Shown here piece by piece: positions 5,300 to 39,593 of a stretch of DNA of 64,000 bases. Where the stretch lies: NCBI GenBank assembly GCA_041651015.1, contig JBAZKA010000002.1, forward strand, positions 6,163-70,162. Direction: 5' to 3'. Within the stretch, counting starts at the first letter, position 1. Each line of letters starts with the position of its first letter. A program made the position numbers and the translations under genes. Origin of the DNA: Patescibacteria group bacterium. Lineage in GTDB: Bacteria > Patescibacteriota > Patescibacteriia > Magasanikbacterales > GWA2-37-8. The notes under the pieces were generated by a model. It searched no databases, was not told the origin of the DNA, and saw only the letters and a list, made by a program, of their open reading frames with translations.

Positions 5300-5560
5300 G
5301 CTGAATGAGCCGCGCTTACAGCGTTGTCGTCTCGTCGCTTCGCGACGTCGCCGAACAACGCTTATACAAAATGTCCGTCGCCCGCTTGCGCGGCTCCGGC
5401 CACATTGTATAAGCGCGGCTCGTTATATGAAATACATGTTTTCCTTTTGGGCTTCGCCCAGCTCTTAAAAAGAATTCAATTTTGTTTTTTTATTAATTAA
5501 TGAGGGGGAATAAGGTGTTTTTTCCGCTGTCGCTACAAAAACGATTTATTTATAAGGGGA
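5300..5560 (+). repeat. island repeat copy 1 (long hairpin gagccgcgcttaca...tgtataagcgcggctc + conserved core gttatatgaNatacatgttttcc...gctcttaaaaagaat...)
   Basis: core about 70-80% identical to 13197-13320 and to the reverse complement of 15955-16090. Confidence 0.7.
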
Positions 5561-5599
5561 AAACGAATACAATAACTTTGCCTAACACGAAAATAGTTT

Positions 5600-7408
5600 A
5601 TGCCAAAAATTAAGGATATACCAAAAATTGATCGCCCAAGAGAAAGGTTTCTGAAAAAAGGAGCTGACGCACTTTCAAAAAGTGATCTTTTGGCAATTCT
5701 TTTAGGTAGTGGAATTAAGGGGAAAAATGTTAGACAACTTTCTGAAAGTATTATTAAAAAATTTGGTAAAAACTTTTTGAACATAACCGTTGATGATCTT
5801 TTAGAAATTTCAGGGATTGGACAAGCAAAAGCCCTCCAAATAGCGTCCGCAATATCATTAGTAAAAAGATTTTACGACGAAAACAAAACTAATGAAATCG
5901 TTATAAAAAATTCTCAAGATGTTTTATCCCTTACTTACGATTTAAGAGATAAGAAAAAAGAACATTTAGTTTGCCTTTATTTAAACGCACGAAATACTTT
6001 ACTAAAAAAAGAAATTGTCAGTATCGGTCTTTTAGATAAGGCATTACTGCATCCGAGAGAAATTTTTTATCCTGCAACCGAATTAAACGCCGCCAGCGTT
6101 ATTTTGGTTCACAATCACCCTTCGGGCGATTCTTCACCAAGCGAAAAAGACAACCAAATCATTGAAAAAATCGTACAAGCTGGTGAAATAATGGGAATAC
6201 CAGTTGTTGATTTCATTATCATTTCTGAAAATAATCATTACAGTTTCTACGAAAAATTAAATAAGCAAAAAGCAAGCGTTGATTATGTTGCAGACGGAAT
6301 ACAAGGCACACTTTTTGCCGTACTTGAAGTTGAAAAACCCGCCTACGAGGTAACGGCTATACAAAAAATTGATAAACCCTATTTCCACTTTTCAAAAACT
6401 CAAAATGATACCTTCCAATTGCAGAATAGAAGATATTTGGGCAATAAATACAAACTGCTCGGATTTATTGAAGATATTGTTGCTGAAAAATGCAACGGAA
6501 TAAAATCATTTTGTGATATTTTTGCGGGTACAGGTGTTGTCGGAGAAAGATTTAATAAGCCAGAAATAAAAATTATTTCGAATGACTTCCTTTTTACAAA
6601 TTATGTTTGCCTAAAAGCGTTCCTTGGTACAAATTCACCTATTCAGAAAATTGCAGATAAAATTGATATTCTCAATAGTTTAAAAACTGATCGAGATAAT
6701 TATTTTTCAAAATACTTTGGTAATACCTATTTTTCGCTAGAAAATGCTAGAAAGATTGGAGCAATCCGTGAAGAAATAGAAAAAATGGCCGAAACGGAAG
6801 AAGAAAAAAAAATTCTCATTTGTTCCTTAATTTATGCAGTTGATAAGGTTGCAAATACAGTCGGACATTATGACGCTTTTCGTAAAGATTTAGATATGCT
6901 ACAGCCATTAAAACTTTTGGCTCCCGATATTGACTACTTAAATAATGGAAATAACGAAATTTACAAAGAAGACGCAAACATCTTGATTAGAAAAATTGCT
7001 TGCGACGTTTTGTACATAGATCCGCCCTATAACTCGCGCCAATATTCAGATGCCTATCATTTACTGGAAAATTTAGCTGAATGGAAAAAACCTAATGTTG
7101 AAGGAATGGCAAAAAAAATGGACCGCTCTCACATAAAAAGTTCCTATTGTCTTAAAAATGCTACACAAGCATTTGAGGACTTGATTAAAAATGCTAATTG
7201 TAAACATATATTATTGTCTTATAATAACACTAGGGATTCAAAGGATGGACGTTCAAATGCCAGAATAAACGATAATGATATTTTACGGATATTAAAAAAT
7301 AAAGGTGAAGTAGAAATTTTTGAAAGAGATTACAAGGCCTTCACTGCTGGAAAAAGCAACGGCGACGGAAACGTCGAAAGAATTTTTTATTGTAATATAA
7401 CAAAATAA
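5600..7408 (+). CDS. fusion protein: N-terminal RadC-like JAB/MPN domain + C-terminal Dam-like (D12, alpha-class) N6-adenine DNA methyltransferase
   Basis: 602 aa. N-terminal half has helix-hairpin-helix and the RadC HNHPSG(x)SPS(x)D motif. C-terminal half has RYLGNKYKLL, FxGxG (DIFAGTGVVG) and DPPYNSRQY in Dam-family order. Confidence 0.75.
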   Translation: MPKIKDIPKIDRPRERFLKKGADALSKSDLLAILLGSGIKGKNVRQLSESIIKKFGKNFLNITVDDLLEISGIGQAKALQIASAISLVKRFYDENKTNEIVIKNSQDVLSLTYDLRDKKKEHLVCLYLNARNTLLKKEIVSIGLLDKALLHPREIFYPATELNAASVILVHNHPSGDSSPSEKDNQIIEKIVQAGEIMGIPVVDFIIISENNHYSFYEKLNKQKASVDYVADGIQGTLFAVLEVEKPAYEVTAIQKIDKPYFHFSKTQNDTFQLQNRRYLGNKYKLLGFIEDIVAEKCNGIKSFCDIFAGTGVVGERFNKPEIKIISNDFLFTNYVCLKAFLGTNSPIQKIADKIDILNSLKTDRDNYFSKYFGNTYFSLENARKIGAIREEIEKMAETEEEKKILICSLIYAVDKVANTVGHYDAFRKDLDMLQPLKLLAPDIDYLNNGNNEIYKEDANILIRKIACDVLYIDPPYNSRQYSDAYHLLENLAEWKKPNVEGMAKKMDRSHIKSSYCLKNATQAFEDLIKNANCKHILLSYNNTRDSKDGRSNARINDNDILRILKNKGEVEIFERDYKAFTAGKSNGDGNVERIFYCNITK

Positions 7409-7410
7409 CT

Positions 7411-9228
7411 ATGAAAAAACCTTGGTCAATTACTACAACACTAAGAAATCCCGAAAGATTGAGAGATTTTTTAATTGTTTTAAGACAACTTGAAAATTGC
7501 AAGTGGGATTTAGAAAGTCAGAAAAAATATCAAATTCTTTTGATAAAAGAGAGGGTTTACGGCTATGGAAGCAATCAATTTTACAATGGATTATCTCAAA
7601 AACAAATTGATTTAATTGACGATCAAACAAAAACAATTACCTTTGAACAAGCCGAAACGATTTTTAATGCTAAAAACTACGAAGATCCTTCAACGAGAGG
7701 GCGGCAATCAATAAATCCTCTTAAAAAATTCGGACTCGCTGTTATTAAAGACGAAAAAATCTGTATAACCAGCTTAGGAAAACTATTTTTAAAAGACGAT
7801 TTTGATCTTGGTGAAATATTTTTTAGAAGTTTTATTAAGTGGCAAATCCCAAATCCTGATAGCGATGACTATAAACTTGAAGATGGATACAATATAGAAC
7901 CATTTGTCGGCGTGCTTCATCTTATTCGGGAAGTAAATGAAAAATCTAGAAAATCAGGAGAAAAAGAAAAAGGAATAAGCAAGGAAGAATTTTCCTTATT
8001 TTGTCCAACCCTTGTTGATTATGAAGATATAGAGCTTTATTCTGAAAAAATTATTGCCCTACGGAAAAAACTTAAAGACAAAACGAAGCAAGAACAAAAA
8101 ACAATCCGCGACAAATATAAAAAAACTTTCGCACGGGAATTTCTTGGAAAATCAAATACTACAGAAATTCAAAAACTCTTAAAAAATCTCAAAGACTACG
8201 GAGATAACGCTATCAGATACTTCCGCCTAACTCGCTATATTTATATACGGGGTGGTGGTTTTTATATTGATCTGGAGCCGAGAAGATCAGTTGAAATCAA
8301 TGCTTTGTTGGATTTTGATAATGCTAAGTCGAAGACCTTTGAGACAAAAGAAAAATACTTAGACTATATTTCTGACATCTCGGAGCCAAAACTACCGTGG
8401 GAAACTAAAGAAAAGCTTACTGAAATTGCCATAAAATTACTTGAAGAAATAAAGTTGTTTGAACGAGAAACAAGGGTAACACCAAAAGTATTTTTGGATT
8501 ATCAAAAATTGGATGGAGATGGATTAAAAAAATTTATCAATGAACTGCGAAACTACCGAAGAGAGCTGCAGGACAAACAAAATCACCAAAAATCACAAGA
8601 TACGGAACAAATTAAATCCTACATTCAAGAACTTGAAAATATTTTTGAATCTGAAGATCGGCCAATACTGCTTGAAAAGTTGTCATCGCTAGGTCTGAAT
8701 GCCCTAAACGATGCATTAAAAATACAACCAAACTATCCAGTTGGTGATGATAACGAGCCAACATTTACGGCACCGGCAAACACGCCAGATATAGAGTGTT
8801 TTTATCAAGGTTTTAATGCTATCTGTGAGGTAACAATGCTAACGGGAAGAGATCAATGGTACAACGAGGGGCAACCAGTGATGAGACATTTAAGAGATTT
8901 TGAGAATAAACATAGCGATAAAACTACATATTGCTTGTTTATTGCTCCCCAAATGCACAGAGATACTATAAACACCTTTTGGACAGCCATAAAATACGAA
9001 TACGAGGGCAACAAACAAAGAATAATCCCTTTATCAATAAACAATTTCGTGTCTCTTTTAAAAATACTCGTACAAATAAAAACCGAGAATAAATTTTTAA
9101 AGCACAGCGAAATTGCTCGCCTATACGATGAAATAATTAATTCATCAAATTCTTTTAGCGATTCCGATGGTTGGCTTAGAAATATTCCCACCGCCATTTC
9201 GTCATGGCAAGAAAGCCTAAATTTTTAA
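7411..9228 (+). CDS. putative Type IIS restriction endonuclease, AlwI-family-like
   Basis: 605 aa. N-terminal W-x-I-T-T-x-R-N-P-E-R pattern recalled from RE_AlwI-family proteins. Located 2 bp after one methyltransferase and overlapping the next. Family assignment is from memory, not a search. Confidence 0.5.
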   Translation: MKKPWSITTTLRNPERLRDFLIVLRQLENCKWDLESQKKYQILLIKERVYGYGSNQFYNGLSQKQIDLIDDQTKTITFEQAETIFNAKNYEDPSTRGRQSINPLKKFGLAVIKDEKICITSLGKLFLKDDFDLGEIFFRSFIKWQIPNPDSDDYKLEDGYNIEPFVGVLHLIREVNEKSRKSGEKEKGISKEEFSLFCPTLVDYEDIELYSEKIIALRKKLKDKTKQEQKTIRDKYKKTFAREFLGKSNTTEIQKLLKNLKDYGDNAIRYFRLTRYIYIRGGGFYIDLEPRRSVEINALLDFDNAKSKTFETKEKYLDYISDISEPKLPWETKEKLTEIAIKLLEEIKLFERETRVTPKVFLDYQKLDGDGLKKFINELRNYRRELQDKQNHQKSQDTEQIKSYIQELENIFESEDRPILLEKLSSLGLNALNDALKIQPNYPVGDDNEPTFTAPANTPDIECFYQGFNAICEVTMLTGRDQWYNEGQPVMRHLRDFENKHSDKTTYCLFIAPQMHRDTINTFWTAIKYEYEGNKQRIIPLSINNFVSLLKILVQIKTENKFLKHSEIARLYDEIINSSNSFSDSDGWLRNIPTAISSWQESLNF

Positions 9229-9230
9229 AT

Positions 9231-10007
9231 ATGGGTATGAAAAAAAATATTATCTACAACGACGATTGCATAAACATACTTAACACGAAGATTGATAAGA
9301 GTTCTATTGATCTTGTCTTTGCCGACCCTCCGTACAATTTATCTGGCAATGGTCTAAAATGGCAGGGCAGCAAAACTGGTGGAGATTGGTATATGGTGAA
9401 TGAGCATTGGGACAAAATGACTGCCCCTGAATATCTACAATTTACCAGAAAATGGATCGGGGCTTGCCATAAAATTTTAAAAGACACAGGATCAATTTAT
9501 ATTGCATGTAGTTACCACAATATCGGTGAGGTAATGATTGTTTTGAAACAATTAGATTTCAAGATAAATAATATTATTACTTGGTACAAAACAAACGCCA
9601 TGCCGAATATGACAAGGAGGGTGTTTACTCACGCAACAGAATTTGTAATTTGGGCTGTTAAAGGTAGTGGATGGACTTTTAATTATAAAGATCTTAAAGA
9701 AATAAACCCTGAAAAACAAAAAGACGGAACCGAAAAACAAATGCGTGATTTTTGGGAATTACCCTTAGTTCAAGGCAAGGAAAGAATACGCGGAAAAGAC
9801 GGCAAAGCGTTACATCCAACTCAAAAACCAGAAGAAATGTTAAAAAGAATCATTTTAGCCAGTTCCAATGAAGGCGATACTGTTTTAGATCCATTTTTAG
9901 GAAGCGGGACAACTGCCGTTGTGGCTAAAAAATATGGTCGCAAGTGGATTGGGATTGAAAAAGAAAAGCAATATTTTAAGATTGCTGAAGAGCGAATAAA
10001 AAAATAA
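9231..10007 (+). CDS. beta-class N4-cytosine/N6-adenine DNA methyltransferase
   Basis: DPPY (FADPPYN) N-terminal and FxGxG (DPFLGSGTT) C-terminal, which is the beta-class order; ATG 9231 chosen to avoid overlap with upstream stop at 9228. Confidence 0.8.
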   Translation: MGMKKNIIYNDDCINILNTKIDKSSIDLVFADPPYNLSGNGLKWQGSKTGGDWYMVNEHWDKMTAPEYLQFTRKWIGACHKILKDTGSIYIACSYHNIGEVMIVLKQLDFKINNIITWYKTNAMPNMTRRVFTHATEFVIWAVKGSGWTFNYKDLKEINPEKQKDGTEKQMRDFWELPLVQGKERIRGKDGKALHPTQKPEEMLKRIILASSNEGDTVLDPFLGSGTTAVVAKKYGRKWIGIEKEKQYFKIAEERIKK

Positions 10008-10011
10008 ATTC

Positions 10012-11154
10012 ATGACCAGCACAAGAGAACAAAATGGCGGTTACTATGCAATTAAGGGTTTTACCTATCAATTTGATAAGTCTCTTTTAGAAATCCTTAA
10101 GAACCAAACGCAGGATGTCGAACTTGAACAAATTCAAGACATTGGGCTAAGCGATTACTATATTCAAGTTAAATACAAAGAAACTCAAAATTACGCCGAT
10201 TCAAAAATCAAACCAGCAGTGTTGCAATTATTAAAATGTTTTCTGGATGATAAAAATAAAAAATTCAAACTATATTGTTATTTTAAAGACAAATCGTCAC
10301 AGACAATCGCTTTAACCGATACCAAGCTTGATGAAATATTAGGTTCAGATAGTAGTGCTTACACGCAAAGTGATAAACAAGCTTTTGTGGGAAATTTCAC
10401 TTTGGAATTTTCAAGTAATTTTGAGAAGCAGTTTAGTGATCTTATAAAACTTATAAAAACCTGTTTTAGTTTAAAGACAGAGGAAGAGGCAACAACATAT
10501 CATGCAATATTTAAAGCAAATTTATTTGGTATAGCCATTAAAAAGAATCCAAAACAAAGAACAATAAATTATAAAAAACTAAAAGAAGTCGCTAACAGCA
10601 ACGAAAAAATAATATTTGATATAGCTTATTGTAAATATCTAAAGATGGAACGATATTTGAAGTATGTAAAAAAAGAGTATTTCACTTTCAAAAAAGTAAA
10701 TACTCCGAGCAAAGAAAGACTTTTTGTTGTTGAGATGGATAATTCAACAAGGGATGGAGATGCCATTCAAATCATAACAAATATAAAAAATCGATACTTC
10801 AAAAAGGATACATCCCCAGCTCCTTATGTTTGTTTATTTGGGATAGACAACGAAAGGATTGCTAATCTCAAACAAAAACTTTGGGACAAGGGGTTGATAT
10901 TTTCTGACGGCACACATTTTGATAGGGATAAATTTAGAATGACTGATCTTATTGCAGACACACATAATAACAATTGTGGTATAACATTTAAGCTTTTGTC
11001 ACTTGAACAATTACCTCTCTTTTTCAAAAAGAAACGACCCGATGAGACTTTTGTATTTTTAACATCTGGCGATGGAGAATGGCGAACAAAAGTTAAAGAA
11101 TTCAAAGAGTTTTATATTGGTCGCACAAAAAATATTACTAAAATAATTCAATAA
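10012..11154 (+). CDS. DUF4297-like (Cap4-type PD-(D/E)xK-like) putative nuclease, partner of HerA ATPase
   Basis: 380 aa. N-terminal GFTYQ motif and D...(I)QVK motif resemble REase-fold QxK variants. Immediately precedes HerA-like gene (4 bp gap). Confidence 0.45.
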   Translation: MTSTREQNGGYYAIKGFTYQFDKSLLEILKNQTQDVELEQIQDIGLSDYYIQVKYKETQNYADSKIKPAVLQLLKCFLDDKNKKFKLYCYFKDKSSQTIALTDTKLDEILGSDSSAYTQSDKQAFVGNFTLEFSSNFEKQFSDLIKLIKTCFSLKTEEEATTYHAIFKANLFGIAIKKNPKQRTINYKKLKEVANSNEKIIFDIAYCKYLKMERYLKYVKKEYFTFKKVNTPSKERLFVVEMDNSTRDGDAIQIITNIKNRYFKKDTSPAPYVCLFGIDNERIANLKQKLWDKGLIFSDGTHFDRDKFRMTDLIADTHNNNCGITFKLLSLEQLPLFFKKKRPDETFVFLTSGDGEWRTKVKEFKEFYIGRTKNITKIIQ

Positions 11155-11158
11155 ATTT

Positions 11159-12892
11159 ATGCCGGAAGTAAAAATTTCAGCTGAAGTTATCTCTGTCTTT
11201 CCAAACAAGGTTAGAATAGCAGTAAGCGATATTGAATCGTTTAAAATAGCTGGGGAACTCTTGGCGGTCGGCTCATATCTCAAAATTTTTGACAACAACG
11301 ACTGTTTTATTGTTGCAATAATAGAAAATTTCTCTATCGTGATGTCTGATCCAGATAAGGAAGGAAAAAGAGATAAGTCCTATATAGTCGAGGCTGTGCC
11401 TCTCGGATTTATCAATTCGAGTGGCGAATTTATTCGAGGTGGCAATAATATTGCAATTCCTCCAAAAACAGTCGAACCAGCTAAAAAAGAAGACATACAA
11501 AAAATATATGACGACATCAAAGATAAAGATCGATTTTGTTTCTCAAAATTAGCTCAAGACACCTCGATAACTGTTCCTGTTGATGGAAATAAATTTTTCA
11601 ATAAACACATCGCCATAGTTGGGTCTACAGGATCCGGTAAATCACATGCTTTGGCAAAAATAATTCAAGAGGCTATAAAAGAAAAAAATATTGGTTATAA
11701 TGGTTTAAATAATTCTCATATAATTATTTTCGACATTCACGATGAATATAAAACTGCGTTTTCTTCAGCCTCATACATTAACGTCGACCAATTAGTGCTC
11801 CCATATTGGCTTATGAACTCGGACGAACTCGAAGAATTGTTTTTAGAATCAGGTGATTTTAATAATTATAATCAAAGCTCAATCCTAAATAGGCTCGTCA
11901 CCGAGAATAAAAAATTAAATAACCCTGGCCAAAAAATCGAGTACGGTAGTCCAGTTGTATTCAAAATAAATGAAATTTTAAACTGTCTAGTTAACTTAAG
12001 CAAAGAGACAAAAAATTATAAAAATCAAGACGAAATTTCTATAAAGGGGGCCTCTAAAACTTTTAGTGGGGATAGTGAAAAATATAAATGTTATTTTGAA
12101 AAAATATTAGAATTTGAAGAACCGAAAGCGCAAAACTTTTCAAAAGGTAGTTTTGCGGATGGAAGTTTGGATAAATTTATCTCTAGATTAAAAAATAAAT
12201 ATTCTGACGCAAGGCTAAAATTTTTATTTGATCCTGCTGTAGAAAGTTTAAAATTTGAAGAAATTCTTCGTCAATTTATTTCTTACAAAACTGGCAAAGA
12301 ATCCAATGTCACAATAATTGATTTAAGTGGTGTCCCCTTTGAAGTATTAAGCATTACAGTATCCCTTATTTCAAGAATTTTGTTTGATTATGCTTATTTT
12401 TATAAAAAAACAAATACTTCATCAATTAACGAAACTCCATTATTGGTGGTATACGAAGAGGCGCATAAATATGTTCCAAAAAATCACTTGGCAAAATTCA
12501 ACGCATCGAGGTTTGCAATAGAGAGAATTGCAAAAGAAGGTAGAAAATATGGAATAACGTCTATAATTGTAAGCCAGAGGCCATCTGAAGTATCTGAAAC
12601 TATATTTTCACAGTGTAGCAATTTCATAGCGATGAGACTAACCAACCCAGAAGATCAAAATTATGTTCGTCGTCTTTTACCAGATACTCTTGGACCACTA
12701 ACAGAATCTTTACCAATACTCCAAGCTGGGGAGGCTCTATTAATTGGCGATTCTGTAGTTATGCCATCACTTGTAAAAATTGACCCATGCACAAATTCAC
12801 CATCATCAAATGATATTAAATATCTTGAAGAGTGGAAGAAAGAATGGAAAGATGTCGCGTTTGATCCAATAATTAAGAAGTGGCAAAAGTAA
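11159..12892 (+). CDS. HerA/FtsK-like (DUF87) ATPase
   Basis: 577 aa. Walker A IAIVGSTGSGKSH, Walker B LLVVYEEAHKY, SIIVSQRPSEV motif; N-terminal HAS-barrel-like region. Confidence 0.75.
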   Translation: MPEVKISAEVISVFPNKVRIAVSDIESFKIAGELLAVGSYLKIFDNNDCFIVAIIENFSIVMSDPDKEGKRDKSYIVEAVPLGFINSSGEFIRGGNNIAIPPKTVEPAKKEDIQKIYDDIKDKDRFCFSKLAQDTSITVPVDGNKFFNKHIAIVGSTGSGKSHALAKIIQEAIKEKNIGYNGLNNSHIIIFDIHDEYKTAFSSASYINVDQLVLPYWLMNSDELEELFLESGDFNNYNQSSILNRLVTENKKLNNPGQKIEYGSPVVFKINEILNCLVNLSKETKNYKNQDEISIKGASKTFSGDSEKYKCYFEKILEFEEPKAQNFSKGSFADGSLDKFISRLKNKYSDARLKFLFDPAVESLKFEEILRQFISYKTGKESNVTIIDLSGVPFEVLSITVSLISRILFDYAYFYKKTNTSSINETPLLVVYEEAHKYVPKNHLAKFNASRFAIERIAKEGRKYGITSIIVSQRPSEVSETIFSQCSNFIAMRLTNPEDQNYVRRLLPDTLGPLTESLPILQAGEALLIGDSVVMPSLVKIDPCTNSPSSNDIKYLEEWKKEWKDVAFDPIIKKWQK

Positions 12893-12959
12893 ATAAAACA
12901 AACAGACAAAAATTCCCTCCCCTTAAACCCCTTCCTTTTTGACTGTTTGTTTGAGAAGA

Positions 12960-13330
12960 AAGAAATAAGGAGTTTTGAATTTTGGGCATTCACCCCTGAC
13001 CCCTCTGCCCAAAATCCAAAACGGAAAAAGAAATTTTAAAATTTTTTAAAACAATTCCGACTGCTGTCGGAAAAAAGAAAAGGAATACATCAGCTAACAA
13101 CGAGTATCCGGTTACGGCTTTCCCCGAAAGCCTCCACCCAAATTTTTCTTTCGCTTCGCTTCAGAAAAACTTCGGATACTCGTAACGTTATATGACATAC
13201 ATGTTTTCCGTTGGGGCTGCCGCCCCGCTCTTAAAAAGAATCCGATTTCGTTTTTTGGTGATTGAGCGAGGGGAAATATAGTGTTTTCTTCGCTACGCTA
13301 CGAAAACCGAATTATTTAATAAAAAATATT
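12960..13330 (+). repeat. island repeat copy 2 (inverted partial core 12960-13030, hairpin aacgagtatccg...cggatactcgt 13088-13197, direct core 13197-13320)
   Basis: aligned by eye to copies 1 and 3. Confidence 0.7.
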
Positions 13331-14137
13331 ATGGCTGACAACTACTACGTTTACGTCTACATTGATCCTCGGAATTACGAGGAATTTTACTATGGAAAAG
13401 GCAAGGGCAACAGAAAAGTAGCGCACCTATATGATGAAAAAGACACAGAAAAAACTAAAATTATAAAAGCCATTCAAAAAGAGGGGCTTGAACCTATAAT
13501 TAAAGTGGTTGCAAAAGGATTATCAGAAAGTGATGCATTTTTAATCGAAAAAACTTTAATTTGGAAACTTGGAAAAAATTTATCAAATATTTCATCGGGT
13601 CATTTTTCAGATAAATTCAGGCCACATAATAGTTACCACCTTAATCTGAATAGTTTTGATTTTGCAAACGGAATTTTTTATGTAAATGTTGGCGAAGGCG
13701 AAACTCGGGCATGGAGAGATTGCCAAAATTTTGGCTTCTTGGCGGCTGGGCAAGGCACAAAGTGGAGCGAACCACTAAAAACATTGAATATCGGTGATAT
13801 TGTCGTGGCATACTTAAAACGAAAGGGATATGTCGGAATTGGTAGGGTAGTCGAAAAAGCCAAGCGGGTACTGGATTTTAAATTTGACGGAAAATCGCTA
13901 AAAACCCAAACTTTAGACAGCACCGATCTCTTTAAAAATTCAGATAATGAGAATACAGAATTTTTGGTCAAAATCGATTGGATTAAAAGCGTGCCGACAA
14001 ATGAAGCGAAGTGGAAAAATAATTCGGGACTATTTACAACACAATTAATTAAGGCATCACTTGAAAACCAGGTAAAAACAATTAATTTTTTAGAAAAAGA
14101 ATTCCATGTTAATTTTACGGACATAATGAACGATTGA
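13331..14137 (+). CDS. GIY-YIG nuclease fused to PUA-like (EVE-type) domain; putative modification-dependent endonuclease
   Basis: N-terminal YVYVYIDP...FYYGKGKGNRK is a GIY-YIG-type motif. C-terminal W-RDCQNFGFL...IGDIVVAYL...GYVGIGRVV resembles the EVE/PUA beta-barrel pattern. Start moved from 13262 to ATG 13331. Confidence 0.55.
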   Translation: MADNYYVYVYIDPRNYEEFYYGKGKGNRKVAHLYDEKDTEKTKIIKAIQKEGLEPIIKVVAKGLSESDAFLIEKTLIWKLGKNLSNISSGHFSDKFRPHNSYHLNLNSFDFANGIFYVNVGEGETRAWRDCQNFGFLAAGQGTKWSEPLKTLNIGDIVVAYLKRKGYVGIGRVVEKAKRVLDFKFDGKSLKTQTLDSTDLFKNSDNENTEFLVKIDWIKSVPTNEAKWKNNSGLFTTQLIKASLENQVKTINFLEKEFHVNFTDIMND

Positions 14138-14370: not shown

Positions 14371-15096
14371 ATGAATCAAGAAAATAAACAAATAACTCCA
14401 CCATATTTGAGCATGGCAAAACTTGCCAAATTAGTTGAAATCGTGAAATCAAGAAACATGACCCAGGTTAATCCTACTCATTTTATCACTCAAGGATTCA
14501 GTCAGGCAGATGCATACGTTGCAATAAACTCATTGCGCTTCCTGGGTCTAGTAGATGACAACAATAATACCACCGATTTATTTCGTAAATTTCAATTAGT
14601 AGGAGAACAGGGCAAAAAAGGCATGGAGGAAGTAATAAAATCTGCATACTCTAAATTATTTGAATCATTCGCTAATGGGAATCCATACGATGAAGGAAAT
14701 GAAGATAATTTAATAAATGATTTCATGATTCAATATGCTATATCAAAAAGAATCGCGGGACCAGCATCAAAAGCATTTGTTTGGTTGTGCGAACAAGCTG
14801 GACTCAGAGAACAATCCATAAAAATACAAGAAAGAAAAATCCGTGTTACATCAACAAAAAAATTGGCAGATAAAAGTAACAACAAAAACAAACCGCAAGC
14901 TGACACAAAAAATGAAAATCCTACTGGAGTAGCTCTCACTCTTAATGGTGGTATTATCATATCAATACCAACAACGGACATAAGAACATCACAAGCAATT
15001 GCATTGGGCGAACTTAAAAGCGCCGTCGAGGAACTTAATAAGTTTGCATTAAAATATATTGTGGAAACCGAAACTAAAAATAATGATGCTGTATAG
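14371..15096 (+). CDS. hypothetical protein (helical N-terminal domain, Lys/Asn-rich linker, small C-terminal domain)
   Basis: 241 aa with no catalytic motif recognised; first gene of promoter-driven pair. Confidence 0.55.
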   Translation: MNQENKQITPPYLSMAKLAKLVEIVKSRNMTQVNPTHFITQGFSQADAYVAINSLRFLGLVDDNNNTTDLFRKFQLVGEQGKKGMEEVIKSAYSKLFESFANGNPYDEGNEDNLINDFMIQYAISKRIAGPASKAFVWLCEQAGLREQSIKIQERKIRVTSTKKLADKSNNKNKPQADTKNENPTGVALTLNGGIIISIPTTDIRTSQAIALGELKSAVEELNKFALKYIVETETKNNDAV

Positions 15097-15111: not shown

Positions 15112-15732
15112 ATGAATATCTATCTTGACGAATCATACAATCTCCAAAAAAATAAAGGGAAAATGTTTATAAGCATCAACGGGTTTGCTGTCCTTGATGA
15201 TAAAGTACTCCGCAAACGCTGGAAAATCGTTCGAAAGGATTATTTAAAAATGAAACGACGTATTCACGCGACTGATTCACGCTTTGAGGATCTCCGTGGA
15301 AAAAGTATAAAAATGCTTGGACGTCACGATGTAAATATTCTTTCGATATTCCAACTGACGCAAGAAATATCTCATGACTACTTTGATACAAATGGCATAA
15401 GATTTGATACCGTGTACACTTCTCTTCTTAAAAAACTATTCACTGATTTATCTCTTGGTGAATACAAGCAAGCACGCATAGTTATGGACGCGAGAAAGCA
15501 TAAAGGCGGGATACTTGGGGAAATCATTTTCCAAAAAACTATCGAGGGATTTCTTTCTGATAAATTCCCTTCAACACGCTGTGTGTTAAAACTTACGCCA
15601 TCCTACGCAGACATTCTGATTGAACTTGCAGACTTTGTGTCCAACACATTTTACAAAGAATATCAGCAAGATTCGGAACACATATTCAAGAAACTTGGAT
15701 TTCGGTTGATACAAATCAAAAACCCGCTATAA
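15112..15732 (+). CDS. DUF3800-like protein
   Basis: 206 aa. N-terminal MNIYLDESYN matches the conserved N-terminal D-E motif recalled for DUF3800; sits 15 bp after the upstream gene. Confidence 0.55.
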   Translation: MNIYLDESYNLQKNKGKMFISINGFAVLDDKVLRKRWKIVRKDYLKMKRRIHATDSRFEDLRGKSIKMLGRHDVNILSIFQLTQEISHDYFDTNGIRFDTVYTSLLKKLFTDLSLGEYKQARIVMDARKHKGGILGEIIFQKTIEGFLSDKFPSTRCVLKLTPSYADILIELADFVSNTFYKEYQQDSEHIFKKLGFRLIQIKNPL

Positions 15733-15949: not shown

Positions 15950-16165
15950 GGCCGCCGGGCATTCACCCCTTTTGTTCCCCTCTGCCCTGCGCCCAAAAGC
16001 GACAAAAAACGAAATCGGATTCTTTTTAAGAGCCATTTGAATTGACGAAATAACGGAAAACATGTACATCATATAACAGCGTGTATGCGGCTACGGTTCC
16101 CCTATCGGCGAACCTCCGCCCATATCGCTAAGGCGACATCGCATACACGCGAACGTTGTACGAAA
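15950..16165 (-). repeat. island repeat copy 3 (inverted orientation; core 15955-16090, hairpin cgcgtgtatgcg...cgcatacacgc 16090-16160)
   Basis: reverse complement aligns with copies 1 and 2 (gttatatgatgtacatgttttccgtt...gctcttaaaaagaatccgatttcgtttttt). Confidence 0.7.
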
Positions 16166-34325: not shown

Positions 34326-34420
34326 TACGCGATGCAAATATACAAATGCATTCGAATAATACTAATGTCGCGACAATGATTCGTATAATTAGTATGCATT
34401 CGTATATTGGCATCGCATTT
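34326..34420. repeat. inverted pair of iteron-like repeats (copies C 34326-34372 and D 34378-34420) forming an imperfect palindrome of about 95 bp upstream of recA
   Basis: copy C ACAAATgcatTCGAATaatACTAAT; reverse complement of copy D ACGAATgcatACTAATtatACGAAT. Confidence 0.6.
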
Positions 34421-34430
34421 ATATTCGTAT

Positions 34431-35504
34431 ATGGCAAAACAAATCAGCGACGAAGTAAAGGAAAAATTAAAAGCGGCCGAAAGCGCGATTGAGCAAATCA
34501 AATCCCGTTTTGGCGAAGGTGCAATTATGAAATTGGGTGAAGCGAGAAAAATGCAAGTTGATGCGGTGCCAACAGGTTGTTTATCACTGGACATCGCTCT
34601 CGGTGTTGGCGGAGTACCGCGCGGACGCGTAATTGAAATTTATGGACCGGAAGCGTCTGGAAAAACCACTCTGGCCCAACACATCGTGGCCGAAGTGCAA
34701 AAACTCGGTGGCATTGCCGCGTTTGTTGATGCCGAGCACGCGCTAGACCCTGACTATGCCAAAAAAATCGGCGTGAAAGTTGACGAAATGTTAATTTCCC
34801 AACCTGATACCGGTGAACAAGCTTTGGAAATCGTAGACACGCTCGTGCGTTCCAATGCCGTGGATGTGGTAGTTGTGGACTCGGTGGCCGCGCTCGTGCC
34901 CAAAGCCGAAATTGAAGGTGACATGGGCGATTCTCACATGGGTTTGCAAGCGCGCCTGATGTCTCAAGCATTGCGCAAATTGACCGGCATAATTTCCAAA
35001 TCCAAAACTGTGGTCATTTTCATCAACCAAACCCGCATGAAAATCGGTGTGGTCTTTGGCAACCCGGAAACGACCACCGGTGGTATGGCTCTCAAATTTT
35101 ACTCTTCAGTCCGCATTGAAGTGCGCCGTTCAGCCCAAATTAAACAGGGCGATAAAATTATTGGCAACCGCGTCAAAGTTAAAATCGTCAAAAACAAAGT
35201 GGCCCCGCCGTTTACCACCACTGAATTTGATATTATGTACAACGAAGGCATCTCGGTTTCGGGCGATGCCTTGGATACGGCCGTCACCTATCATGTGGTG
35301 GACAAACGAGGTAACAGTTATATGTTTGGTGAAGAAAAATTAGGCGTGGGCCGTGAAACCGCCAAAGCATATTTGCGCGCCAATCCGAAATTGATTGATA
35401 AAATCAAAGCTCTGACTTTCAAAAAAGCCGAGGAAGGCGAACCAGAAGAGGGCGTGGGCGTGCAATCGGCAGACAACGAAGTTCCCCCGCCGAGTGAGGA
35501 ATAG
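34431..35504 (+). CDS. recA: recombinase RecA
   Basis: Walker [11 protein letters not shown]1/L2 regions; ATG 34431 preferred over the TTG 34407 given in the ORF track. Confidence 0.95.
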
Positions 35505-37383: not shown

Positions 37384-38487
37384 ATGCCGGAAAAAGAATC
37401 CCCACAAACACTTGCGGCGCGCGCAAACGCCTGGGTTGAACGCCATCTCGGGCGAGTTCCTTTTGTCCAAAAATTCATGTTCATCCACCACTTGGAAATC
37501 ATGTCCAAGGCCGGATTGTCCATTATTAACAGTTTGCAAGTTCTGGCGGCGGAAATTGAAAATAAAAAATTGAAACACATAGTCGGTGAAATTAAAGCTG
37601 AAGTGGAAACCGGCAAGCAACTTTCCGAGGTGCTAGCAAAATATCCCAATGTTTTCCCGCATATTTATGTCAACATGGTGGCGGCCGGTGAAATATCCGG
37701 AAAATTAGATGACGCCTTGGGGCAAATCAGCGACCAAATGCAAAAATCCCAACGCCTAAACGCTAAAGTTCGCGGCGCCATGATTTACCCGTGCGTAATT
37801 ATGGTGGCCATGGTTGGCATCGCTCTATTCGTAGTTTTTTATATCATGCCGAAAATCTTAGTCATGTTCACCGAGATGGACGCCAAGTTGCCGCTTGCCA
37901 CCAGAATTTTAATCGCCATCACTCACTTTGGCCAAAATTATTGGTGGGCGATCTTTATTGCAATTGCAGCCGCGATTTTTGGCTATTCAAGGGCATTGCG
38001 AATCCCCAAATTTAAACACACAATACACAATCTAATATTATCTTTACCTATTTTTGGCATTATTGTTATCAAAGTAAATTTGGCGCGATTTACCCTTACT
38101 CTCTCGTCTTTACTTTCCTCCACCATCCCGATCGTGGACGCGGTCCGAATTTCATCCGAGGTTTTAAATAATGTAGTTTACCGCGAGCAGTTGGCCGTTG
38201 CCACCGAGGGTCTGAAGCAGGGGCAGGCGCTTTCGCAAATTTTAAGTGCTTACAAAAAAACTTTTCCGCCCATGGTGACGGAAATGGTCATGGTCGGCGA
38301 GCAAACCGGACGTATTGAAAAAATGTTAAAGGAACTTTCCGAATATTACAATAATGAAGTGGAAGAAACAATGAACAATTTTACTGCCATCATTGAACCG
38401 GTAATTATTCTGATGCTCGGCGTGGGCACGGCCGGCATCGCCATTGCTGTAATCATGCCAATGTATTCATTGGCTCAAAGCGTTTAA
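37384..38487 (+). CDS. pilC: type IV pilus platform protein PilC/GspF
   Basis: 367 aa; two GspF repeats with 3 TM segments. Confidence 0.85.
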   Translation: MPEKESPQTLAARANAWVERHLGRVPFVQKFMFIHHLEIMSKAGLSIINSLQVLAAEIENKKLKHIVGEIKAEVETGKQLSEVLAKYPNVFPHIYVNMVAAGEISGKLDDALGQISDQMQKSQRLNAKVRGAMIYPCVIMVAMVGIALFVVFYIMPKILVMFTEMDAKLPLATRILIAITHFGQNYWWAIFIAIAAAIFGYSRALRIPKFKHTIHNLILSLPIFGIIVIKVNLARFTLTLSSLLSSTIPIVDAVRISSEVLNNVVYREQLAVATEGLKQGQALSQILSAYKKTFPPMVTEMVMVGEQTGRIEKMLKELSEYYNNEVEETMNNFTAIIEPVIILMLGVGTAGIAIAVIMPMYSLAQSV

Positions 38488-38492
38488 TCGTT

Positions 38493-39593
38493 ATGTTGAT
38501 CAACAACCCATTCAACGGCGCGTTCGGACTGGACATCGGCGATACAACGGTGAAACTTTTGCGTCTAAAAAAATACTGGCGTCCGAAACATGGAATATAT
38601 TTTGACATCAAAGATATTCGGCAAATCAATTTACCGGCCGGCTGTATTGAATCCGGTGAGATTTTGCAACCGGAACTGGTAAAGGAAAAATTAAAAGTAT
38701 TGCTTGGCAAACATGGTCGTTCACCGGCCGTCAAGGCCCCCTGGGTGGTGGTAAATTTACCCGTAGCCAAATCGTTTTTAAAGCTAATCCGCATCAACGC
38801 GTCAGAAGAGGAAATCAATGACCAAGCGGTCCGATTTGAAGCCTCCAAACATTTGCCCATGGATATGAAAGACATGGACGTCGACTGGCAAATTATCAAA
38901 AACGGCGACAACGCTGCCGGAGTCACTTCCATTTTAGTTGGGGCCGCGCCCAAGGCCATAACCAATTCATATTGCGAACTACTTGAATCAATCGGGTTGG
39001 CTCCGCTAGCGCTGGAAGTGGAAGATTTATCGGTCGCTCGTTCCCTTATCACTGCCAATAAGACATACGAAAACGAAGCCAGAGCCATTTTAGATCTCGG
39101 CGGCTCGCAATCCAGCATGATTATATATGATAAGGGCAGTATTCAATTTAGCGCGCTTATTCCTTTTTCCGGCGATTTGATTGACACGGCTCTAACACAA
39201 AGATTAAACATAGAACGCGTCAAAGCAACTCAGCTTAAAAATGACAATGGTTTAAACTTCGTTAACGAGTATCCGGACTATTTAAAAGTCATGACCGAGA
39301 TGTCGGAAAAATTAGTGGAAAATATTTATCAAAAAATTCTTTTCTATCGCGACCATTTTTACAAACCAAACCCCATTACGCATATCACTATGTCCGGCGG
39401 TTTGTCATCCATGACAAATCTGGATAAATTTTTGACTGATAAACTGCAAACCGAAACCCGTCCGGGCAATGTTTGGAAAAATCTTTTTAATGACAACCTT
39501 GGGGAGGACCGCAACTCGGGGTTATCGCTCGCCGCGGCAATAGGCCTGGCGATTCGCGCCGCCTCTTGGCCGATTGAAAAACAAAAATTATGA
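38493..39593 (+). CDS. pilM: type IV pilus assembly protein PilM (actin-like ATPase)
   Basis: GLDIGDTTVKLL N-terminal phosphate-1 motif; 366 aa. Confidence 0.8.
   Translation: MLINNPFNGAFGLDIGDTTVKLLRLKKYWRPKHGIYFDIKDIRQINLPAGCIESGEILQPELVKEKLKVLLGKHGRSPAVKAPWVVVNLPVAKSFLKLIRINASEEEINDQAVRFEASKHLPMDMKDMDVDWQIIKNGDNAAGVTSILVGAAPKAITNSYCELLESIGLAPLALEVEDLSVARSLITANKTYENEARAILDLGGSQSSMIIYDKGSIQFSALIPFSGDLIDTALTQRLNIERVKATQLKNDNGLNFVNEYPDYLKVMTEMSEKLVENIYQKILFYRDHFYKPNPITHITMSGGLSSMTNLDKFLTDKLQTETRPGNVWKNLFNDNLGEDRNSGLSLAAAIGLAIRAASWPIEKQKL

Follow-up and report, generated by a model that had tools for sequence, protein, structure and literature searches.

RadC-headed DNA methyltransferases of mobile type IIS restriction operons share a conserved linker peptide that is a candidate binder of the sliding clamp

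This work deals with a gene at positions 5600..7408 (+ strand) of a 64,000-nucleotide (nt) stretch of DNA from a Patescibacteria group bacterium (GenBank assembly GCA_041651015.1, contig JBAZKA010000002.1), hereafter the window. It joins a RadC, a linker and a D12 DNA methyltransferase in a single open reading frame (ORF), matched by Pfam and NCBIfam models, and leads an operon. The ORF encodes 602 amino acids (aa), begins with ATG and contains no internal stops, and neither a RadC nor a methyltransferase domain was found in any of the other reading frames of 5600..7408. The protein starts with the UPF0758_N or helix-hairpin-helix (HhH) DNA-binding domain of RadC (aa 4-78, nt 5609..5833, + strand; Pfam PF20582, E 1.5e-22), a helical bundle with a predicted local distance difference test score (pLDDT) of 77-91 in an AlphaFold2 model of the head alone. 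The RadC JAB/MPN domain follows (aa 102-219, nt 5903..6256, + strand; PF04002, E 2.2e-37, 128 bits against a cut-off of 22.1), with a match to the RadC homolog of PDB entry 2qlc at E 1.5e-25. The NCBIfam models give 219 bits for the RadC equivalog NF000642 (cut-off 180) and 211 bits for TIGR00608 (cut-off 134). The JAMM metal motif, E...HxHx7SxxD, is complete, with E154 in an HPRE sequence (nt 6059-6061) and H171, H173, S181 and D184 (nt 6110-6151) in the stretch H171-N-H-P-S-G-D-S-S-P-S-E-K-D184. The assignment of the N-terminal region to RadC, JAB and HhH included, which the original prediction had made by reading the sequence, is therefore borne out by the Pfam matches and the equivalog cut-offs.

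Behind the head lies an inter-domain linker of about 55 aa (aa 220-277, nt 6257..6430, + strand), predicted by AlphaFold2 to be disordered, and then an alpha-class D12 N6-adenine DNA methyltransferase domain (nt 6434..7405, + strand). The latter is recognized by Pfam PF02086 (MethyltransfD12, aa 279-536, E 5.9e-33, 115 bits with a cut-off of 22) and by the PADLOC model MTase_II (PDLC03373, E 1.4e-112). Its motif X, RRYLGNKYKLL, starts at aa 277, and motif I, FAGTG (aa 308-312, nt 6521-6535), precedes motif IV, DPPY (aa 474-477, nt 7019-7030), by some 160 aa, with a target-recognition region between the two, which is the alpha-class order. The motifs quoted in the original prediction are found where it had placed them and in the order it had claimed. 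Its term “Dam-like” is valid at the level of the D12 alpha class and fails at the level of the Dam subfamily, because the model TIGR00571 gives only 24.7 bits, far under its cut-off of 114.85. Most likely, the enzyme is not a GATC Dam but belongs to the pair of strand-specific methylases that serve a type IIS system.

The first question that such a fusion raises is whether a sequencing error or the loss of a stop codon could have merged two genes, or whether the RadC part is the non-functional remnant of a decaying pseudogene. The region 6250-6430 is in frame, the same junction is present in the best 120 database relatives, and the fusion recurs in loci from 41 GTDB species genomes, so an artefact is excluded. 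In particular, neither a frameshift nor the loss of a stop codon nor assembly of a chimera at 6250-6300 is compatible with the single frame and with the same in-frame junction across hundreds of independent assemblies. With all catalytic motifs intact and a ratio of nonsynonymous to synonymous substitutions (dN/dS) of ca. 0.03 in the head, the probability of an artefact or a decaying remnant is practically nil. The same relatives show that the architecture, described at the outset as unusual, belongs instead to a large, conserved and horizontally mobile family. C5 and N6_N4 methyltransferases can bear the RadC head as well. All of the best 120 relatives have 540-636 aa, both Pfam domains and 75-92% identity, and they come from contigs of up to 4.9 Mb. 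When one genome per GTDB species was scanned, the fusion turned up in many lineages of Patescibacteria and in Nitrospirae, Margulisiibacteriota, Spirochaetaceae and Desulfaltia, as well as on two gammaproteobacterial replicons of ca. 2 Mb and on one short contig binned as Thermoplasmatota. Public annotation calls these proteins either “DNA repair protein RadC” or “adenine-specific DNA-methyltransferase.” We collected 193 RadC-methyltransferase fusions, 191 of which keep the JAMM motif E..HxHx7SxxD. Pairwise dN/dS values of ca. 0.03 for the RadC part, versus 0.05-0.10 for the methyltransferase part, indicate that the head is under strong purifying selection and more constrained than the methylase. 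The product of the window gene is a single functional protein made of three parts, and it is the first methyltransferase of a mobile type IIS restriction-modification (RM) operon.

This operon comprises five co-directional genes that overlap or are separated by 5 nt or less, with the RadC-methyltransferase gene at the front. The link to an RM system that had been proposed holds, as an AlwI-family endonuclease begins 3 nt past the stop codon and is followed by a second methyltransferase. The endonuclease (7411..9228, + strand; RE_AlwI, PF09491, E 8e-82) is of the AlwI/BspD6I type IIS family and possibly nicking. It matches N.BspD6I in the PDB at E 1e-34, and its best PADLOC model, over the full length, is the “type II nicking endonuclease” (REase_II, E 1.2e-134). 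We noticed no gene beside it resembling the small subunit of R.BspD6I and, given this and the model match, the system may restrict by nicking. The second methyltransferase (9204..10007, + strand; PF01555, E 5e-64) is of the beta-class N6_N4 type and CcrM-like, and its gene overlaps that of the endonuclease by 25 nt, an indication of co-transcription. With a D12 enzyme (5600..7408) and an N6_N4 enzyme (9204..10007) in the same system, we infer one methylase for each strand of an asymmetric type IIS site. The last two genes code for an anti-phage pair, DUF4297 (10012..11154, + strand; PADLOC DUF4297) and HerA (11159..12892, + strand; PADLOC HerA, E 8e-251), recognized as a pair by NCBIfam NF042945/NF042944. 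The collinear arrangement of RadC-methyltransferase, AlwI endonuclease and second methyltransferase is found at the loci L001-L012 and L032.

The operon is located within a block of low GC content (30-35%) that spans from ca. 5.4 to 16.1 kb, in a genome with 44-45% GC around it. The RadC part has 32.5% GC, like the island and unlike the flanks (44-45%), so the head came with the imported island and travels with the cassette, and is no repair gene of the host. Capture of the host radC by an inserted RM cassette, which we considered, is ruled out by this composition; it is also contradicted by the 98% nt identity of the head to a locus in another lineage with different flanks. No second radC, and no dnaN, is present in the 64-kb window. 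Three more candidate defence genes lie in the same low-GC island, coding for a GIY-YIG protein (13331-14137) that matches the PD-T4-3/PDC-S11 models, a DUF5343 protein (14371-15096) that matches PDC-M34A and a DUF3800 protein (15112-15732). Farther away, the host RecA and proteins of the type IV pilus/T2SS-F and PilM types are encoded at 34407-35504 and 37384-39593, consistent with a Patescibacteria-like and possibly naturally competent host.

Genes that are so clearly transferred across phyla might serve in establishment, the head processing or shielding the entering DNA against restriction while the methylase modifies it, as for the RadC of polyvalent proteins. We searched the plasmids of PLSDB and the phages of INPHARED and did not find the fusion; no match covers at least 80% of the query, and only the separate domains appear. 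Viral contigs of IMG/VR contain only head-less relatives, e.g., a 357-aa orphan methylase at L052. The location on a plasmid, integrative and conjugative element or phage, with early delivery into the recipient, that marks polyvalent proteins (Iyer et al. 2017) is therefore not what we see here, the context being a chromosomal defence operon where the gene sits beside its cognate endonuclease. Absence from the plasmid and phage records searched disfavours a role in establishment, which we regard as highly improbable.

The clearest evidence of mobility comes from the comparison of the window with two groups of loci. Those of group A have the same operon as the window. At the loci of group B, RadC is 91-100% identical to that of the window and the D12 methylase only ca. 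43%; the second methylase is a different one, the endonuclease is a distant AlwI-family protein of 505 aa, and SIR2-HerA replaces DUF4297-HerA. Between the window and L013 (group B), RadC is identical at the amino acid level, 98% identical in nt and has a synonymous divergence (dS) of 0.10, versus 42% aa identity for the methyltransferase. Between the window and L001 (group A), the relation is reversed, with 84% nt identity and dS 1.14 for RadC and 93% nt identity and dS 0.32 for the methyltransferase. Sliding-window identity delimits an L013-like segment from 5413 to ca. 6290, containing RadC and an upstream non-coding element (E1, below), and an L001-like segment from ca. 6300 on; the two profiles cross at nt ~6280-6330, inside the linker. 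The switch from one to the other marks the window gene as a recent recombinant with its junction in the linker. The N-terminal 250 aa are a portable head-and-neck module, made up of a complete RadC and a linker, predicted to be disordered, with a conserved peptide (the neck), and this head module came into the window gene recently, together with its upstream, probable promoter region. In the island layout, the RadC-headed RM genes are followed by DUF4297-HerA in the window (10012-12892) and by SIR2-HerA in L013 (12246-15276), as if the HerA effector partner had been swapped in place.

The head has moved beyond D12 enzymes. About 45 of the best 120 matches to the fusion protein P0151 carry it on C5 cytosine methyltransferases, among them proteins of a Bathymodiolus symbiont and of Thioglobus, and the genes of these RadC-C5 fusions adjoin HpaII and Vsr, MTaX1 or NgoFVII-like genes; the head is also found on one N6_N4 methylase. 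Heads on C5 enzymes are up to 81% identical to that of the window and those on orthologous D12 enzymes 62-65%, so the phylogeny of the head is decoupled from that of the methylase body. A single 808-kb contig carries two RadC-C5 genes (L047, 7001-8953; L048, 7001-8530) with 87% aa identity (92% in nt) over the first 425 aa, i.e., the head, the neck and the first 165 aa of the methylase, and complete divergence beyond, which suggests that specificity modules were exchanged behind a shared head. Within the set of representatives searched, the head and neck together were attached to DNA methyltransferases only.

The element that travelled with the head, E1 (5413..5599, + strand), is a conserved non-coding region immediately upstream of the RadC-methyltransferase gene, defined by its nt identity to L013 (78-100% to the corresponding upstream region there). 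It is found upstream also in L002, L031 and L038. The window has a further copy at 13187-13330 (+) and a partial, inverted one at 16003-16077, and others are present in L013, L015 (3 copies), L016, L020 (2 copies) and L026. The core, GGGGTATAAGGTGTTTTCTCCGCTCCGCTACGAAAACGATTTATTTATAAGGGGAAAACGAATACAATA, is >90% conserved, and E1 stands ahead of several distinct defence cassettes across lineages; each full copy in the window is itself preceded by a variable hairpin of ca. 80 nt. Tested as a structured RNA, E1 showed neither an Rfam match nor covariation and no more than a weak hairpin, and a sigma-70 scan detected no clear promoter in it. Judging from its position and distribution, E1 is probably a portable promoter/operator and leader of the operon that is exchanged along with the RadC head. 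A second conserved intergenic element, E2, lies after the last gene of the cassette (12893-13186) and appears in the relatives L001 (13906-14102), L002 (14465-14598) and L013 (15289-15582), as well as in L015, L016 and L020. Together, E1 and E2 bracket the RM and HerA block like cassette boundaries.

The neck extends the RadC of the fusions by ca. 30 aa past the end of the standalone RadC (about aa 219 of the alignment). In the window, the conserved peptide is D228-Y-V-A-D-G-I-Q-G-T-L-F-A-V-L-E-V-E-K-P-A-Y249 (nt 6281..6346, + strand); the candidate clamp-binding peptide discussed below is DYVADGIQGTLFAVLE. The consensus is D-Y-V-A-D-G-x-Q-x-[S/T/G]-L-F-D-L-L-E-x-E-K-P-x-Y, regardless of the methylase class, with a core that in the window is Q235-G-T-L-F239 (nt 6302-6316). 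Among 92 non-redundant fusions, Q235 never varies, and conservation reaches 90% or more at Y229, G233, L238 and F239. The variation among neck codons is synonymous, with third positions changing freely, which shows selection for the peptide rather than for a site in the DNA; for the same reason, an att-like site for DNA recombination at the neck could be discarded. The pattern Qxx[LMIF]F is present in 192 of the 193 fusion linkers, at a density of 0.019 per residue versus 0.00008 elsewhere in the same proteins (~230-fold). The peptide is embedded in a region with low AlphaFold2 confidence. In the model of the full-length protein, the linker has block-mean pLDDT values of 28-50, with nearly all of aa 222-284 below 50; in the head-only model, aa 222-265 have block means of 43-57 and the RadC domains mostly 77-93. 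For aa 230-259, the block means are 28-34 in the former and 43-47 in the latter.

This core resembles the peptides that bind the beta sliding clamp of bacteria. The published motif is QL[S/D]LF, or more broadly Q-phi-x-[L/M]-[F/L] or Q-phi-x-[L/M]-x-[F/L], usually located in disordered regions or at termini with acidic flanks, and substitutions at position 2 are tolerated at a cost in affinity. The window QGTLF matches at Q, L and F and has a G, which is not aliphatic, at position 2; it is located in a region predicted to be disordered and flanked by the acidic D228, D232 and E243/E245, as clamp binders are. The same type of motif recurs in relatives of the methylase with another head or none. 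Orthologues headed by LexA have QLP[LFM]F (e.g., the canonical QLPLF) in 69 of 85 cases, within a linker otherwise unrelated to the RadC neck. Among 60 representatives of D12 enzymes with neither a RadC nor a LexA head (clusters at ≤50% identity), nine have a clamp-like motif in the N-terminal leader, compared with 1.07 ± 1.01 in shuffled leaders (maximum of 5 in 1000 shuffles). MSAAQLALF, QLNLSF and QLFLF are among them, and two or three of the nine resemble RadC-fusion fragments. Given that the motif does not depend on the class of methylase, the family of endonuclease or the type of head, and that the cassettes cross phyla, the partner of the neck should be a universal bacterial protein. 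On the pattern of the peptide, the beta clamp (DnaN) would be the obvious candidate.

It is illustrative to consider what else occupies the head position. LexA, with its helix-turn-helix (HTH) and S24 domains, takes the place of RadC in close orthologues of the window methylase (60-67% identical; ca. 85 clusters at 90% identity), and the catalytic Ser and Lys, along with the Ala-Gly cleavage site, are intact in 74 of these 85 LexA heads. Their genes lead the same operon of endonuclease and second methylase. Examples of LexA-D12 genes are those at 8001-9695 in L042, L043 and L046, 7142-8833 in L044 and 7495-9186 in L045; at these loci the operon is of the AlwI-endonuclease/N6_N4-methylase kind, and most of them have a large serine recombinase a few kb downstream. 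A search for LexA boxes upstream of LexA-headed genes, with only two distinct promoters available, gave no clear palindrome. Other relatives have an HTH_3 domain, S24 alone, the HhH half of RadC alone or nothing in this position. In P0401, P0402 and P0434, the JAB domain has been lost, and the HhH and a neck with QESLF or QKPLF remain ahead of a C5 methyltransferase. The window head itself has HhH and JAB and no HTH, the HTH_3 and LexA heads being confined to relatives. From these domain assignments, the common denominator of the heads is a DNA-binding domain, often with its natural partner peptidase.

Two simpler accounts of the head and neck have to be considered in the light of these data. 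RadC might do its ordinary job, the fusion only ensuring that both parts are transferred and expressed together and the neck being a spacer or the tail of a RadC subfamily. RadC is indeed widespread and often on mobile elements, a few standalone RadC proteins have related tails (P0186, NYIRETTQEIMALDF; P0257, LYVGDG...) and most RadC fusions have a non-canonical residue at position 2. However, the restriction of head and neck to methyltransferases extends over three unrelated classes of these enzymes, the Q..LF core recurs independently in LexA-headed and unheaded methylases, and the head is under stronger constraint than the methylase. Exclusiveness within the set searched and strong constraint together disfavour passive co-expression, and we consider it unlikely.

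A second account would make the protein a self-processing polyprotein, in which the JAB domain cuts the neck in cis or in trans and frees the methyltransferase, maybe upon sensing single-stranded DNA, by analogy with LexA, CapP/CapH or ImmA/ImmR. The JAMM site, intact in nearly all the fusions, the location of the conserved peptide exactly between the domains, the intact autopeptidase of the positionally equivalent LexA heads and the published release of domains from polyvalent proteins by embedded peptidases all speak for it. However, the RadC-type JAB has been argued in the literature to lack the groove for ubiquitin-like tails and proposed to act on nucleic acids, AlphaFold2 does not place the neck peptide in the active site and the heads without JAB retain the same neck. 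Besides, unheaded methylases have the motif at the extreme N-terminus, where cleavage would be senseless, and the cut made by LexA falls between HTH and S24, away from the linker that joins it to the methylase. Self-processing thus appears very unlikely.

The explanation that we prefer, although as a whole it could equally well be right or wrong, is that of a portable head and neck on a type IIS methylase, with the neck as a clamp tether and RadC as an accessory head. The QxxLF of the neck would bind the beta sliding clamp and tether the methylase to the replisome, so that nascent DNA would be modified at the fork before the endonuclease acts. At asymmetric sites, each daughter duplex would retain after replication one of the two strand-specific marks, and fast re-methylation would lower self-restriction; its speed would matter most if the endonuclease nicks and passing forks turn the nicks into breaks. 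We have moderate confidence in this part, that the neck would tether the enzyme to DnaN and nascent DNA be methylated at the fork. The RadC head would be an accessory DNA-binding and peptidase (metallohydrolase) module, positionally equivalent to the self-cleaving LexA or to an HTH, that would most plausibly couple the methylase, or the expression of the operon that it leads, to single-stranded or damaged DNA. Our confidence that the head is a DNA-binding metallohydrolase with a role comparable to that of the LexA and HTH heads, and with a link to single-stranded DNA or damage, is low to moderate. The co-transfer of E1 with the head would be compatible with a regulator-operator unit. The clamp-like linker, and LexA and HTH domains in the same position, point to a putative replisome tethering and/or DNA-damage-responsive control rather than to the link with DNA repair or anti-restriction suggested in the original prediction. 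A wider version, in which many RM methyltransferases would be recruited to forks by a clamp peptide and RadC in general would be a clamp- or fork-associated metallohydrolase, interchangeable with LexA as a damage- or single-stranded-DNA-responsive control head for methylases and defence operons, is only tentative and rather doubtful.

Several observations weigh against the preferred explanation. Most RadC-headed proteins have G, A or N at position 2 of the motif, and a non-aliphatic residue there predicts weak affinity, like that of the internal QADMF of Pol III alpha. Clamp binding would be deduced from a five-residue pattern, and it leaves the DYVADG and EKPxY parts of the neck unexplained. 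The fusion P0151 lacks the neck motif, and so do the HTH_3-headed relatives. In the AlphaFold2 models of the full protein and of head plus neck, whose confidence in the linker is low, the neck is not docked onto JAB or the methylase and there are no confident contacts between domains. As for the head, DNA binding by HhH domains is not sequence-specific, which makes RadC a poor candidate for a repressor acting on a particular operator, and some RadC-C5 systems have a separate C-protein-like HTH gene upstream. Some relatives have lost JAB and kept HhH and neck, which implies that JAB catalysis is not always required. Finally, a comprehensive 2024 review of the beta clamp lists no methyltransferase among its partners, which means novelty but also the lack of a bacterial precedent; a plasmid methylase acting at the replication fork has been described, without a clamp motif.

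Compared with known systems, the head shares with the RadC/YicR family (PF04002 and PF20582; TIGR00608; 2QLC) the full HhH and the JAB metal motif. However, the canonical RadC is a standalone protein of ca. 220 aa, and that of the window is part of a 602-aa fusion with a conserved 30-aa tail that leads a restriction operon. Published RadC fusions involve HhH, ArdC, DnaG primase, DinG helicase and polyvalent proteins, not RM methylases, and a nuclease-like role has been proposed for them. With the strand-specific D12 methylases of type IIS systems (FokI/StsI and BstNBI/BspD6I types), the window enzyme shares the alpha-class motifs, the AlwI/BspD6I endonuclease and the second methylase; a LexA-headed orthologue is named “Modification methylase StsI” in one source. 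Among the characterised type IIS D12 methylases, we know of none that has a clamp-binding-like leader or is headed by RadC or LexA. The autoregulating methylases of the SsoII/EcoRII type, and control by C proteins, offer another parallel in the N-terminal DNA-binding module on the first gene of the operon. In the SsoII type this module is a sequence-specific HTH that binds an operator in the promoter of its own gene, whereas the window has HhH and a metallo-JAB instead, with HTH_3 or LexA in the same position of orthologues. LexA, ImmA/ImmR, IrrE/DdrO and CapP/CapH similarly set a DNA-binding domain and a peptidase at the head of defence operons, although the protease-repressor pairs, which turn on defence or mobile-element genes upon DNA damage, are separate genes and the window module is covalently fused to an enzyme. 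To our knowledge, neither peptidase activity nor a regulatory function has ever been demonstrated for RadC.

In eukaryotes, the maintenance methyltransferase DNMT1 is recruited to the sliding clamp PCNA by a PCNA-interacting peptide (PIP) box. The likeness lies in a Q-x-x-hydrophobic motif within a disordered N-terminal region of a DNA methyltransferase and in the same proposed logic of coupling to replication. The differences are the clamp (beta instead of PCNA), the class of the motif and the family of the methylase, and the bacterial interaction is a predicted one. Our literature search returned no report of RadC-headed RM methylases, of LexA displacing RadC or of a clamp-binding-like motif on bacterial methylases. 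RadC-headed RM methyltransferases are a large and mobile family previously undescribed in the literature searched.

RadC occurs in nearly all bacteria, is part of competence regulons and is found in mobile elements. Its function has been unknown for decades and, as far as we know, no biochemical activity has been demonstrated for it. Here RadC is tied covalently to an enzyme whose function is known, in a position that it shares interchangeably with LexA, which provides a handle for testing what it does. The modularity of head, neck and body indicates that RM systems can exchange regulatory or targeting modules independently of specificity, and the crossing of phylum boundaries by these cassettes, from Patescibacteria to Proteobacteria, bears on gene flow in uncultivated lineages. 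If the clamp motif on restriction methylases is real, it would explain how nascent DNA is kept safe from the cell's own endonuclease, especially at asymmetric type IIS sites. Restriction methylases would then be a new class of clients of the beta-clamp hub, which is a drug target, and a prokaryotic equivalent of the DNMT1-PCNA pair.

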